From Nitrospinaceae bacterium (lineage in GTDB: Bacteria; Nitrospinota; Nitrospinia; Nitrospinales; Nitrospinaceae), in contig OZ250172.1 of NCBI GenBank assembly GCA_965237905.1, positions 2,981,784-3,013,783 on the forward strand: DNA of 32,000 nt, written 5' to 3'. The translations under genes were made by a program, and so were the position numbers. Shown piece by piece: positions 11,190-14,581 of this stretch. The notes under the pieces are model-generated. The model saw only the letters and a program-made list of their open reading frames with translations, was not told the origin of the DNA and did not search any database. Each line of letters starts with the position of its first letter. Within the stretch, counting starts at the first letter, position 1.

Positions 11190-11603
11190 TCATTTTTTTT
11201 CAAACAGGGCATCCAGAATCGGGCATTCGGGTATTACACCGCCTTCACACTGCGAAGAAATTTTAGCCAGTATTTTTTCCAGCTTTTTTAAATCCACAAT
11301 CTTCCGGCGAATATCTCCAAGATGATGAAGTGTGATCTTTTGCACTTGAACGCAGGTGTTTTCGCCACCATCAACCAACCTCAAGAGAGCCCGAATTTCT
11401 TCAAGTGAAAAACCCAGGCCCCTGCCACGGCGTATGAAAACCAGCCGCTTCAGGTGATTTTCACTATAAATCCGATGTCCACCTTCAGTTCGAGGTGGTT
11501 TTGGGAATATCGCAATCTTTTCGTAATAGCGGATTGTCTCAATCTTGCAGTGAGTGAGATCGGACAAAACTCCAATAGTTAATCTTTTTTCTCTATTTTG
11601 CAT
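11190..11603 (-). CDS. MerR-family transcriptional regulator with three C-terminal-region Cys; start reassigned from 11879 to the ATG at 11603
   Basis: LTIGVLSDLTHCKIETIRYYEKIAIFPKPPRTEGGHRIYSENHLKRLVFIRRGRGLGFSLEEIRALLRL, then C..(GENTC)..C(SSQC)..C(PECPILDAL). AAGGAG sits upstream of the ATG. Confidence 0.92.
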   Translation of the reverse strand: MQNREKRLTIGVLSDLTHCKIETIRYYEKIAIFPKPPRTEGGHRIYSENHLKRLVFIRRGRGLGFSLEEIRALLRLVDGGENTCVQVQKITLHHLGDIRRKIVDLKKLEKILAKISSQCEGGVIPECPILDALFEKK

Positions 11604-11611
11604 AAAACTCC

Positions 11612-11645
11612 TTGAACCTGTAGTTACTACAGGTTTTATATTATA
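11612..11645 (+). promoter_or_regulatory. MerR-type operator/promoter: -35 TTGAAC (11612-11617), 19-bp spacer, -10 TATATT (11637-11642), centred on the 21-bp perfect dyad AACCTGTAG-TTA-CTACAGGTT (11615-11635)
   Basis: Read directly from sequence. The overlong 19-bp spacer with a centred dyad is the hallmark of MerR-activated promoters. A minus-strand TATAAT (11645-11640) could serve merR. Confidence 0.88.
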
Positions 11646-11693
11646 AGCGAAAAAATGATTTTTGGGAAATGACTTTAAAACCGGGAGAGGATC

Positions 11694-12404
11694 ATGGACA
11701 AAACACAGATCAATCAAGAAATCGTATCGGCTTTTAAGCTTGGCATCCCTCCAGTAGCAATGGCCTTCGTTGATGGACAACCGGACGGCGTGAGCACTAT
11801 TGAGGGTGAATACCCCTCGTTTTGTACCTTTTGGCGCATGGCTGAGGAAAAAGTATTCTATGCACCGGCGGATAAACATTACAACTGTCCGATTGGAGCC
11901 ATGATATTGGGGATCGAGATGCCCAAAGAGGTGCAGGAAGAACTGGGTGGCTTGGTTGAAAAAATGTGTGAATGTTCTTACCTGTCCGAGGATGAACCGG
12001 CAAATATTCCCACCCTTTCCAAGAAAATGAGCGGCGTGGTATATGGTCCATTGAAAGGCTTTCCGGTGGAACCTGAACTGGTCATGATGTGGTTGAAACC
12101 TTCACAGGCGATGATCTACAACGAGGTTTTAGGTTGCTGTAAATGGTCGGAAAGCATGCAATCTATGGCGTTAGGAAGACCGGCTTGCGCGGTGATTCCA
12201 ACAACCCTGGACAAGTCTCCGTTTGGGATGTCGCTAGGTTGTACCGGAATGCGTACCTTCACCGAAATCAGTGATGAACATATTCTGGCCACACTCAACT
12301 TTAGAGAGATAGATTCGTTCCTGACCAATCTTAAATCTACGGTATCGGCCAATAAAGAGATGGAAGAAATTTATATAAGCAAGAAAAACCAATTCGCCAA
12401 TTAA
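11694..12404 (+). CDS. DUF169 family protein, first gene of the MerR-controlled operon
   Basis: IPPVAMAFVDGQP, SFCTFWRMA, HYNCPIGAMILG, VLGCCKWSESMQ, MSLGCTGMRTFTEI. GGGAGAGG ribosome-binding-like site upstream. Confidence 0.8.
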   Translation: MDKTQINQEIVSAFKLGIPPVAMAFVDGQPDGVSTIEGEYPSFCTFWRMAEEKVFYAPADKHYNCPIGAMILGIEMPKEVQEELGGLVEKMCECSYLSEDEPANIPTLSKKMSGVVYGPLKGFPVEPELVMMWLKPSQAMIYNEVLGCCKWSESMQSMALGRPACAVIPTTLDKSPFGMSLGCTGMRTFTEISDEHILATLNFREIDSFLTNLKSTVSANKEMEEIYISKKNQFAN

Positions 12405-12479
12405 TAATTATCCTTTTATAAAAGCAAGCCGGTTCCTTGGTTTGTTTAAATGAAGTTGTTCCACACGTAGGTTGAGACC

Positions 12480-13112
12480 ATGTCGTTTGTTTATATGAAA
12501 ATCCTTGAATCCCGTCCCGAACGATACGATATAGGAATGGGTCTGTTGACTTTGGGATCGTTGACAAAAATTAAACGGCAAATCGCAGATCATGTTAATC
12601 CCGGAAATCGAGTCCTCGATTTGGGCTGCGGGACCGGAACATTGGCACAAATGTGCATTGAACGAGGGGCGCAGGTGGCTGGGGTAGATGCCAACAGCGG
12701 TATGCTTGAAGTGGCAAAGAGAAATTCGCCTTCTGCAAATTTTCTTAACATCAGCCTTAGCAATCTGGATGAGCATTTAGAGGATGAATCATTCGATATT
12801 ATTTTAAGCACTCTTGCATTCAGCGAATTGACCCGCGCAGAGAGACTTCATGTATTGAAACAAATCAAAAGAATCTTGAAAAAAGAAGGAAAGGTTCTTA
12901 TCGGTGACGAAATAATTCCGGAAAATTTATCCGCCAAATGTTTTTACTATGCTTTCAGATTACCCATGCGGCTTCTTACCTGGATCGTGACCCAAAACAC
13001 CACTAACGCTATTTCTAATTTCGATGATGATGTGCAGCAGGCGGGCATGGAAATAGTCAGCCGCAAGCCGTTTATGTTGGGCATGTTCATCCTTTTGGAA
13101 ATTAAAAAATGA
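12480..13112 (+). CDS. Class I SAM-dependent methyltransferase, translationally coupled to the HgcA-like gene
   Basis: Motif I VLDLGCGTGTLAQMCIERGAQVAGVDAN; FDIILSTLAFSEL; ATGA overlap with the next gene at 13109-13112. Start could be 12480 or 12495. Confidence 0.88.
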   Translation: MSFVYMKILESRPERYDIGMGLLTLGSLTKIKRQIADHVNPGNRVLDLGCGTGTLAQMCIERGAQVAGVDANSGMLEVAKRNSPSANFLNISLSNLDEHLEDESFDIILSTLAFSELTRAERLHVLKQIKRILKKEGKVLIGDEIIPENLSAKCFYYAFRLPMRLLTWIVTQNTTNAISNFDDDVQQAGMEIVSRKPFMLGMFILLEIKK

Positions 13113-13978
13113 TCGGTTGGATTAAAGACATCTATCAAACGCTATTTCGGTTTGCCCGGTTTCCGTGCGAACCTGAAACCATTGCTATCGGGAATCCTGC
13201 AAAATACTCGCCGGTTCTTGTCACCTGCAATTTTGATTATACGGTCAGACATTTAAAGAATTATTTGGAAGAAGAGCATATAGATTGCTTTCTTCTGGTG
13301 GTCAATACCAAAGGCACCAACGTCTGGTGCGCGGCGGCTGAAGGTATTTTTACAACCGAAACGGTTCTTGCCCATTTAAAGGTTTATAATGTAAGAGAGC
13401 TTGTTAATCACACCAACTTGATACTTCCGCAATTGTCTGTGGCTGGAGTAAAAAGAAAAGCTCTCAAAGAACATGGCTGGGAAGGAATTTATGGTCCGGT
13501 TTACTTTGCCGACTTAAAGGAATTTTTGGATAACGACTTTCGCAAGACCAAGGACATGCAGGCTCTAGAATATGGATACTGGGAGCGTTTTAAAATGGGT
13601 CTCAGCCATGCGGTTTTCTGCACATTAGTTTGCATACTTCCAATTTTTCTTTTTGCTTCCGAGTTGTGGCTTCAAGCCATCGTTTTAGTCTGGTACTTCG
13701 CTTTCAGTATGCAATTAATTGAACATTTTATTCCCTTCGATAGATTGCTATACAAAGGTCTAGCGCTTTCCTTGCCAATTCTGGTACTGGTGCTGTTTTT
13801 CTCAATAGATACTGTTTTGCAAATCCAGGTAATAATCGGGATTATTGCCTTAGGTGCTTTTATTGGATTCGATGCCCAAGGTCATTCCCATCTCGGGCAA
13901 AATCAGAATTCGGGAAAACTTACTGCTGGGATTTTTGCATTTTTGGCTTTATCTTATGGAGGTTTATTATTGCTATGA
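13109..13978 (+). CDS. HgcA-like membrane-bound corrinoid protein (CdhD/AcsC-type corrinoid domain plus C-terminal transmembrane domain)
   Basis: AIGNPAKYSPVLVTCNFDYTVRHLKNYL...FLLVVNTKGTNVWCAAAEGIFTTETVLAHL...LVNHTNLILPQLSVAGVKRKALKEHGWEGIYGPVYFADLKEFL matches my recollection of the HgcA cap-helix region across its length. It is followed by about 5 hydrophobic helices. Confidence 0.82.
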   Translation: MIGWIKDIYQTLFRFARFPCEPETIAIGNPAKYSPVLVTCNFDYTVRHLKNYLEEEHIDCFLLVVNTKGTNVWCAAAEGIFTTETVLAHLKVYNVRELVNHTNLILPQLSVAGVKRKALKEHGWEGIYGPVYFADLKEFLDNDFRKTKDMQALEYGYWERFKMGLSHAVFCTLVCILPIFLFASELWLQAIVLVWYFAFSMQLIEHFIPFDRLLYKGLALSLPILVLVLFFSIDTVLQIQVIIGIIALGAFIGFDAQGHSHLGQNQNSGKLTAGIFAFLALSYGGLLLL

Positions 13979-14163
13979 AAAAATTTGTGGATTGGGACAA
14001 GATAGAAGAGGAAACGGGTTCTGCCGAGGAAGCCTGTGAATGCACTAGAAGCAAATTACAATCACTGATTGATTTCGTGGTGGAATTATTTCCCAAGAAA
14101 AAGGATTCATCTTGTTGTCCCGAAATGAATGAAAAAGAAAATGGCCAATGCAATGACAACTGA
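13975..14163 (+). CDS. Small Cys-rich soluble protein (62 aa), possible metal chaperone
   Basis: ATGA overlap with the HgcA-like gene; CEC, CC and C motifs: EEACECTRSK...DSSCCPEMNEKENGQC. Confidence 0.6.
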   Translation: MKKFVDWDKIEEETGSAEEACECTRSKLQSLIDFVVELFPKKKDSSCCPEMNEKENGQCNDN

Positions 14164-14581
14164 TACCTCAAGCTCGGCGAAAACGGTAGAAACTTCTATT
14201 TGTCCTACCTGTGGTTGTTCTTTAATAAGGTTGGGCATCGGTTCGGATCGATGGGCAAAAACTACTTACGCAGGCAAGGAGTATTTCTTTTGTTGCCAGG
14301 GTTGCGCTGATCTGTTCAATCAACAACCTCAAAAATACCTTGAGGAAACCAAGGATTTAGTCGTTTGTCCGACTTGTTTGGCAGAAAAACCGGTGCAGTG
14401 GGCTGTGCGCATGGAAATTGCCGGATGGGAAGTGTTTTTTTGTCGATGTCCATATTGTCCGGACGTATTCCGAAAGGACCCGGACCACTACGTCAAACGT
14501 TTACAAGGTGAGATCGCTTATGATGGTGTGTTCGGTCAGGCCGGATGTTGTTCCACGGACACACAGGGGAACGCTGAGTGA
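14129..14581 (+). CDS. Tandem YHS/TRASH-like Cys-rich metal-binding protein (start 14129 or 14153)
   Basis: Two analogous modules: CPTCGCSL...YAGKEYFFCCQGCADLFNQQPQKYL and CPTCLAEKP...IAGWEVFFCRCPYCPDVFRKDPDHYV. Overlaps the preceding small gene. Confidence 0.75.
   Translation: MKKKMANAMTTDTSSSAKTVETSICPTCGCSLIRLGIGSDRWAKTTYAGKEYFFCCQGCADLFNQQPQKYLEETKDLVVCPTCLAEKPVQWAVRMEIAGWEVFFCRCPYCPDVFRKDPDHYVKRLQGEIAYDGVFGQAGCCSTDTQGNAE

Follow-up and report, generated by a model that had tools for sequence, protein, structure and literature searches.

What does an HgcA-like corrinoid membrane protein do in an operon that lies behind a MerR-type promoter and that also encodes a methyltransferase and two Cys-rich proteins? 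This question is raised by positions 11190–14581 of a 32,000-nucleotide (nt) stretch of DNA from a Nitrospinaceae bacterium (GenBank assembly GCA_965237905.1, contig OZ250172.1, positions 2,981,784–3,013,783 of the forward strand), which we analyzed as a whole and refer to as the window. An initial annotation, made from the sequence alone, had presented the operon as a candidate new system for metal or metalloid handling or for methyl transfer. The claim of novelty does not stand: the operon is the published Nitrospina ‘HgcA-like’ locus, and NCBIfam models exist for both its methyltransferase, CpaM, and its HgcAB-like partner. As a tentative answer to the question, we favor an Hg(II)-induced methyl transfer in which the group passes from S-adenosylmethionine (SAM) to mercury (Hg) by way of the corrinoid, while the Cys peptide and the YHS protein carry the metal.

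The locus corresponds to Cluster 3 of Villar et al. (bioRxiv 10.1101/648329), whose gene set is matched by that of the window together with high identity to Nitrospinaceae proteins. Villar et al. credit Gionfriddo et al. 2016 for the HgcA-like protein. The legend of their Fig. 1b names MerR1, UbiE, DUF169, and YHS as neighbors, and they put forward the hypothesis of an Hg-induced, merR-triggered control of expression. Lin et al. 2023 discussed Nitrospina-like hgcA together with members of the fused-hgcAB clade, found no Nitrospina genome with a neighboring hgcB, and described the function as untested. In the work of Kop et al. 2024, four Nitrospinia genomes had hgcA and none had hgcB. In open-ocean metagenomes, no other hgcA homologs are reported to be as abundant and widespread as the Nitrospina HgcA-like genes (Villar et al.; Lin et al. 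2023; Tada et al. 2026), and for their expression Tada et al. 2026 cite Tara Oceans metatranscriptomes. These genes are the leading candidate for methylmercury formation in oxic subsurface seawater. In the literature on the locus after Gionfriddo et al. 2016, we found no 62-aa peptide, no identification of ‘UbiE’ as CpaM, no operator shared with merT, and no adjacency to mer genes; CpaM itself was not mentioned in the literature searched.

Organization and conservation of the operon

The merR-family regulator gene (11190–11603, minus strand; 137 aa, start ATG at 11603) is transcribed divergently from five plus-strand genes. These encode a DUF169 protein (11694–12404; 236 aa), the class I SAM methyltransferase CpaM (12480–13112; 210 aa), the HgcA-like corrinoid membrane protein (13109–13978; 289 aa), an acidic Cys peptide (13975–14163; 62 aa), and a tandem YHS/TRASH-type Cys-rich protein (14129–14581; 150 aa). 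A 229-aa open reading frame (ORF) listed at merR is a mere upstream extension of the 137-aa frame. The junctions at 13109–13112 and 13975–13978 are ATGA overlaps of 4 nt each. The peptide and YHS genes overlap by 35 nt (14129–14163), a value that hinges on the choice of the YHS start codon; an overlap of 32 nt was found again in the relative L122. Public gene collections hold all six operon proteins as identical called sequences from one contig.

The divergent merR, the MerR-type promoter, the five same-strand genes, and the three overlapping junctions are thus all present as the initial annotation had described them. The annotation was also right that the operon lacks hgcB, as the ferredoxin motif CxxCxxCxxxC occurs in no ORF of at least 30 aa in the 32-kb window. 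Its statement that merA and merB lie outside the operon agrees with our data insofar as neither gene is among the annotated ORFs of the operon and its immediate surroundings, with no search aimed at them.

A metagenome scan yielded 54 marine Nitrospina-type contigs, on which the contig counts given here are based. All six genes occur in the same order on 25 of these contigs, and most of the others are short and end inside the cluster. The neighborhood is thus strongly conserved, and neither of the two computational results that the initial annotation had named as refuting it, a corrinoid protein outside the CdhD/HgcA fold or a neighborhood not conserved in relatives, was obtained. An independently annotated contig of 2.68 Mb carries genes for MerR, DUF169, a Thioredoxin_3-like protein, the methyltransferase, CdhD, the 62-aa product, and YHS.

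In some relatives the operon adjoins mer genes. The locus L104 has a MerT-like gene within the operon, between DUF169 and CpaM. In L121–L123, a second MerR directly after YHS faces merT, merP, and genes for a GDCCVxC protein and a membrane protein. L005 carries merR, merT (108 bits with the MerT model), and a truncated merP-like ORF (37.7 bits) located 1.8 kb upstream of CpaM, and the operon genes for CpaM, the HgcA-like protein, the peptide, and YHS follow below these mer genes. A full merR-merT-merP-merA set lies one gene from the operon in L134, a contig of the same type that comes from sediment (77 kb), and the encoded MerA scores 544.6 bits against an equivalog cutoff of 454. No merB was found among the annotated neighboring ORFs of the mer-linked relatives.

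The genes that follow merT-merP in L122 (10727–11352; also in L121 and L123) encode a GDCCVxC-domain protein (102.5 bits) and then a Cys-containing membrane protein of 123 aa. A paralog of this membrane protein is encoded between merR and DUF169 in L121–L123.

The operator is shared with merT-merP promoters of relatives

The main promoter (11612–11642, plus strand), which was read from the intergenic sequence, consists of a −35 element TTGAAC (11612–11617), a spacer of 19 nt, and a −10 element TATATT (11637–11642). Our sigma-70 consensus scan permits spacers of 16–18 nt only, and the promoter was therefore missed in that scan and read by eye. A perfect 10-1-10 palindrome, AACCTGTAGT-T-ACTACAGGTT, occupies positions 11615–11635; it occurs once in the window, with 0 chance matches expected. 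The operator of the operon can also be written as CTRTAGTYACTACAGGTT. On the opposite strand, a candidate promoter for the divergent merR (TTCCCA-17-TATAAT, 11640–11668, minus strand; 10 of 12 consensus matches, judged by consensus only) overlaps the operator region.

With two R/Y positions allowed, the 31-bp promoter/operator recurs exactly in 13 other loci. Its 18-bp operator core is found in 26 loci, the merT promoters of L121–L123 among them, and the operator is kept across loci although the flanking sequence diverges. In L122, the merT promoter reads TTGTAT-CTATAGTCACTACAGGTTG-TATCAT, and its operator is CTATAGTCACTACAGGTT, compared with CTGTAGTTACTACAGGTT in the window.

The regulator itself matches the Pfam families PF09278 (MerR-DNA-bind, 67.3 bits) and PF13411 (MerR_1, 62.9 bits) and shares 63% identity and its Cys triad with the L122 MerR encoded opposite merT-merP. 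In the window protein this triad comprises Cys84 at the start of the dimerization helix and Cys119 and Cys127 in the C-terminal loop. Cys84 is invariant, and the two loop Cys residues align with those of the MerR proteins encoded beside merT-merP and merT-merP-merA. Because the same operator and a similar three-Cys MerR are found in both, the window operon and the L122 merT-merP operon look like one regulon type, and this favors Hg(II) as the signal.

One Nitrospina lineage (L002, L091, L093–L095, L115, and L125) has, in place of the divergent MerR, a different, co-directional three-Cys MerR upstream of DUF169, which scores 132 bits with the MerR model.

The methyltransferase is a CpaM that accompanies HgcAB-like proteins

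The methyltransferase scores 254.6 bits (cutoff 180) with NF043040, the ‘corrinoid protein-associated methyltransferase CpaM’ model, which NCBIfam grades as a hypothetical equivalog; residues 2–209 of the protein cover model positions 1–215 of 216. To place it in context, we assembled 80 loci from species-representative genomes and one earlier locus, 81 in total, and located homologs of the window proteins among the six-frame ORFs of each. In 61 of the 81 loci, which span many phyla between Acidobacteriota and Asgard archaea, the gene immediately upstream of the corrinoid gene encodes a CpaM homolog. A single ORF encodes both proteins in 12 loci, mostly from Chloroflexota. By a Rosetta-stone argument, this adjacency and these fusions suggest that the two proteins work together.

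The fused ORFs, of 530–590 aa, are found in L031, L032, L035, L038, L042, L043, L047, L055, L056, L069, L079, and L081 (mostly Chloroflexota/Anaerolineales), an example being L056:5757–7442. As far as the reading frames tell, the CpaM–HgcA-like fusion adds a third architecture to those of the HgcAB fusions and of the Nitrospina type, which has no ferredoxin. A small separate ORF for a 2x[4Fe-4S] ferredoxin is present in 13 loci and can be seen in L056 at 7405–7698, just downstream of the fused ORF.

A neighbor-joining tree, built without bootstrap on the N-terminal 150 aa of the corrinoid proteins, gathers the 20 CpaM-free loci on one separate branch, where L031, a CpaM fusion, is the sole outlier. 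We regard this branch as that of canonical hgcA. The Nitrospina type is on the CpaM-associated side of the tree, in agreement with Lin et al. 2023. For canonical HgcAB, Zheng et al. 2024 reported that the methyl group comes from SAM via a Cys-ligated methylcob(III)alamin; by analogy, a route from SAM through CpaM to the corrinoid would be chemically reasonable.

In L082/L083 (3330–9427), the genes for a B12-binding radical SAM protein, a DUF169 protein, a UbiE-like methyltransferase, an HgcAB-like fusion, and a second radical SAM protein follow one another, with a nonribosomal peptide synthetase (NRPS) gene upstream. From its gene content, this cluster looks like a biosynthetic gene cluster.

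The corrinoid protein has an HgcA-type fold and a ferredoxin-less C-terminus

The corrinoid protein matches CdhD (PF03599) with 56.9 bits, well above the cutoff of 24.8. Its homologs are 57–100% identical and mostly 289 aa long; the named ones all belong to Nitrospinaceae, whose proteins are 78–89% identical to that of the window, and several homolog clusters contain hundreds of metagenome members. The nearest homologs outside Nitrospinaceae are fused HgcAB-like proteins with 29–40% identity. The cap-helix Cys74 (motif NVWC), which corresponds to Cys93 in ND132, is invariant in 58 aligned homologs.

The only sequence relatives in the PDB are the large subunits of the corrinoid iron-sulfur protein (CFeSP). 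An AlphaFold2 (AF2) model with a mean predicted local distance difference test score (pLDDT) of 86.8 contains a Rossmann-like domain and five long C-terminal helices (residues 157–182, 184–203, 213–229, 235–256, and 266–288), which we assume to sit in the membrane given their hydrophobic sequence. The best fold matches of the model are the published HgcAB model 9a0b_A (E 9e-11) and CFeSP large subunits, with ~2 Å over ~125 residues. Within the clade, C171 and C175 in the first C-terminal helix and the H259-S-H261 loop are invariant. Where the fusions have a ferredoxin domain, the Nitrospina type has a conserved GFD(A/S)QGHSH loop and one final helix, and the ferredoxin columns of the alignment are empty.

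Cys-rich and putative metal-binding accessory proteins

The 62-aa peptide is acidic, has CECTR(S/T)K as an invariant motif, and carries a vicinal Cys-Cys pair at its C-terminus; neither Pfam nor NCBIfam gave a family above threshold. A relative with an HgcA-like protein of 59% identity has a peptide of 51% identity that shows the same motifs. It is found on 44 of the 54 marine contigs, and an exhaustive HMMER pass over 1.84 billion proteins returned only 13 cluster representatives. The retrieved sequences end in C-terminal CC tails, except for two variants with frameshifted-looking ends. Judged by this conservation, the peptide is a real gene that represents a tiny, clade-restricted family. 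In L005 (4793–5080) the peptide ends in ...GTLLLKLML, and the near-identical P0294 ends in ...GTSCCSSSCC; the odd end in L005 is probably an assembly frameshift. We also considered that the peptide might be a detached Cys-rich tail (CSCPTC...CC), such as long HgcAB-like fusions have, and rejected this on a profile–profile probability of 0.3%, which leaves the CxC...CC pattern as an analogy only.

The YHS gene directly follows the peptide gene on 41 contigs. Its product matches PF04945 (53.7 bits) in two stretches and has the C-terminus GCCSTD, and no hydrophobic leader is visible in its sequence.

The DUF169 protein (PF02596, 80.2 bits) has four Cys residues, C44, C65, C165, and C183, that are invariant in a 44-sequence alignment. 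Its AF2 model has a pLDDT of 92.5, and neither sequence comparison nor Foldseek gave a PDB relative (best E 0.17). The protein may represent an uncharacterized metal- or Fe-S-binding fold. Outside Nitrospinota, DUF169 homologs of 45–50% identity are encoded near a methyltransferase and an HgcAB-like fusion, either next to this pair or ~2 kb away. In many relatives, the gap between DUF169 and CpaM is filled by a Thioredoxin_3-like gene of ~90 aa with SGCPIC and CPSC motifs (for example L003:1484–1774, L096, L118, L121, L128, and L147:6767–7036). This gene is absent from the window, where the DUF169–CpaM gap is only 75 nt.

Genomic surroundings

The GC content of the operon (window 11000–14600) is 41–43%, compared with 49–54% in the right-hand flanks, which is consistent with the horizontal acquisition suggested by Villar et al. 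A second dip, to 43%, lies around 8000–9500. Downstream of the operon, by 1.1 kb, there is a lone gene for a CbiQ-like protein (cobalt/ECF transporter T-component; 15680–16423), which is not conserved in L147, the sole relative compared. Farther away, an ORF of 1632 aa (22604–27502) has weak multicopper-oxidase domain matches near its C-terminus only, and it is followed by cytochrome c genes and an EB_dh/cytochrome c gene (29273–31984).

Proposed mechanism and its alternatives

Based on these data, we propose a plausible mechanism for the operon, to which, as a whole, we assign a probability of roughly 45%. Binding of Hg(II) to MerR would turn the operon on. The cob(I)alamin of the HgcA-like protein, bound Cys-on via Cys74, would then be methylated by CpaM from SAM. 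Meanwhile, cytoplasmic Hg(II) would be captured by the acidic Cys peptide and the YHS protein and handed to the methyl-corrinoid, so that these two proteins would handle Hg in the way that HgcB is proposed to do with its C-terminal Cys pair. Finally, the methyl group would pass to Hg to yield methylmercury, or possibly dimethylmercury, which would leave the cell. DUF169, with its four invariant Cys residues, might supply the electrons for Co(I) regeneration, which is a mere guess. The regulation and the CpaM–corrinoid partnership are the better supported steps, while the last transfer to Hg and the electron source are those that we infer. A more specific version of this proposal is possible yet doubtful: that oxygen-tolerant nitrite oxidizers carry out Hg-induced, ferredoxin-independent methylation of Hg(II), with Cys chaperones delivering the metal, for the purpose of detoxification or export, possibly as volatile dimethylmercury. 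On this version, the operon would be a direct biological source of methylated Hg in oxic subsurface ocean water, working in another way than anaerobic HgcAB.

Several points weigh against Hg methylation by this operon. The ORFs of the 32-kb window include no merT, merP, or GDCCVxC homolog, and the adjacency to mer genes rests on three locus types, namely L104, L121–L123, and L005/L134. The scores of hidden Markov models (HMMs) do not tell the specificities of MerR, CueR, and CadR/PbrR apart for the regulator. The corrinoid protein lies in the CdhD/HgcA fold, as the initial annotation had held in calling it HgcA-like, but it is not a canonical HgcA and belongs instead to the CpaM-associated, fused-HgcAB-like branch. 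It scores 135.7 bits with the HgcA model NF040863 (cutoff 275), and 228.7 bits with the HgcAB_like model NF043039 (cutoff 285), of which it covers positions 1–240 of 350. Its cap-helix motif is NVWCAAAE, not one that ends in GK, and therefore falls outside the six high-stringency motifs of Capo et al. 2022 (NVWCAAGK, NVWCASGK, NVWCAGGK, NIWCAAGK, NIWCAGGK, and NVWCSAGK). Because the 32 kb encode no ferredoxin partner, it is hard to see how Co(I) would receive its electrons in a host that is aerobic or microaerophilic. According to Tada et al. 2026, Hg methylation by Nitrospina is unconfirmed and there is no hgcA-carrying isolate, and the tested organisms with fused HgcAB all failed to make methylmercury (Lin et al. 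2023; Capo et al. 2022).

The failure of fused-HgcAB organisms to methylate Hg would be expected if the CpaM/HgcA-like pair had retained an ancestral, non-Hg role of the fused-HgcAB-like clade, to which MerR, YHS, and the peptide add metal-dependent control or protection. The ancestral role could be corrinoid-dependent methylation of an organic or thiol acceptor, or reductive chemistry such as the dehalogenation of halomethanes; a 2026 preprint reported that heterologously expressed HgcAB dechlorinates CCl4. The genes that recur beside the 61 CpaM-associated loci encode TetR (17), ABC ATPase/ABC-2 permease proteins (9 and 5), and ArsR (3), and one locus is flanked by radical SAM genes with an NRPS gene nearby. 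Since the neighbors in the wider CpaM/HgcAB-like clade are thus TetR, ABC-2 exporter, and radical SAM genes instead of metal genes, the ancestral substrate of that clade was probably not Hg, which is a further point against the mechanism proposed above. For the Nitrospina operon we nonetheless regard a retained ancestral role as rather unlikely. A metal sensor and two Cys-rich proteins were acquired in this clade in particular, joined in relatives by mer genes for transport and reduction. Dehalogenation would have no evident need of a SAM methyltransferase, and the cap-helix Cys is invariant.

Alternatively, the same methyl-transfer machinery could be induced by, and act on, another soft metal or metalloid (Cd, Pb, Zn, Cu, Ag, Au, As, Sb, Te, Sn, or Tl). 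The regulator scores 116.6 bits with the NCBIfam model for MerR, 113.2 with that for CueR, and 112.4 with that for CadR/PbrR, values that are not separable and all lie under the equivalog cutoffs (150.85 for TIGR02051, the Hg-responsive MerR model). The window, as noted, lacks merT, merP, and a GDCCVxC homolog. In addition, the operator has a half-site of the CTxTAG type, which we take to resemble operators of the Cd/Pb/Zn type, and YHS/TRASH domains are most often tied to copper. A different metal is distinctly unlikely in light of the relatives, however: their neighboring metal genes score best as MerT, MerP, and MerA, the last above its equivalog cutoff, and merT-merP lies behind the same operator. 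The recurrent neighbor clusters and the annotated neighboring ORFs of the mer-linked relatives included no ars, cad, czc, or cop gene. The list of substrates in the initial annotation (Hg, As, Se, Te) accordingly narrows toward Hg, given the merT-merP or merR-merT-merP-merA genes beside the operons of relatives and the common operator. Its broader idea, that a soft-metal sensor controls a corrinoid methyl-transfer module, is supported by the gene content, the three-Cys MerR, and the 19-bp-spacer promoter, though not as something new.

Even with Hg as the metal, the operon could handle Hg(II) or methylmercury without making methylmercury. The Cys proteins might sequester or traffic the metal in the cytoplasm, the corrinoid protein then being a target that is protected or sacrificed, or a corrinoid-dependent demethylation might replace the missing merB. 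Relatives whose operons adjoin mer operons including merA, with no merB among the annotated neighboring ORFs, would fit such a role, as would the two dedicated Cys-rich proteins and a control by a MerR-type sensor, which is typical for resistance genes. To our knowledge, canonical hgcAB has not been described as Hg-induced, which also speaks for handling. We consider this explanation improbable because the class I SAM methyltransferase, coupled to the corrinoid protein throughout the clade and sometimes fused to it, suggests donation of a methyl group over its removal, and sequestration by itself requires neither a corrinoid nor SAM.

Hg-induced methyl transfer from SAM through the corrinoid to Hg is the reading that we prefer on balance. 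The analysis sharpens what can be predicted for the locus: Hg(II) should switch the operon on through the 31-bp promoter/operator common to merT-merP. The gene annotated as ‘UbiE’ encodes CpaM, a partner protein characteristic of the non-methylating fused-HgcAB branch, and the corrinoid protein is accompanied by a conserved 62-aa Cys peptide and a YHS protein instead of a ferredoxin. For surveys, these points call for caution before Nitrospina HgcA-like genes are counted as hgcAB.

Comparison with known systems

The operon and the Nitrospina ‘HgcA-like’ locus of Villar et al. are the same entity, with a corrinoid protein that is 78–89% identical, matching neighbors, and the same hypothesis of Hg induction; the window copy differs from many relatives in having no thioredoxin-like gene between DUF169 and CpaM. 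In its corrinoid-binding domain, the HgcA-like protein is homologous to the CFeSP large subunit (AcsC/CdhE), with 31–34% identity and a root-mean-square deviation of ~2 Å over ~125 residues. Unlike that subunit, it has neither an Fe-S domain nor a TIM-barrel partner, is predicted to be membrane-anchored, and has a Cys at the cap-helix position.

With canonical HgcAB of the Pseudodesulfovibrio mercurii ND132 type, the window system shares the CdhD-like domain, the cap-helix Cys, the five-helix C-terminal domain, and SAM as the likely ultimate source of the methyl group. It differs in lacking the HgcB ferredoxin, in the motif NVWCAAAE in place of ...GK, and in an HgcA score of 135.7 against the required 275. 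It further differs in its dedicated CpaM, which is absent from all 20 loci of the canonical branch, in its MerR promoter, and in its host, an aerobic or microaerophilic nitrite oxidizer. The fused HgcAB-like proteins with CpaM (NF043039 and NF043040) are closer: they too have a CpaM gene upstream of the corrinoid gene, which in the window overlaps it by 4 nt, and they lie on a common branch of the tree. In contrast to them, the window protein has a GHSH loop and a final helix in place of the 2x[4Fe-4S] domain and the Cys-rich tail, and only the Nitrospina-type clade has MerR, the peptide, and YHS as accessories. As for regulation, the genes under control are not merT, merP, or merA, and the regulator falls under the MerR equivalog cutoff. 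The arrangement is nevertheless that of a mer operon, with a divergent three-Cys MerR, a dyad between the −35 and −10 elements, and an operator held in common with the merT-merP promoter of relatives.

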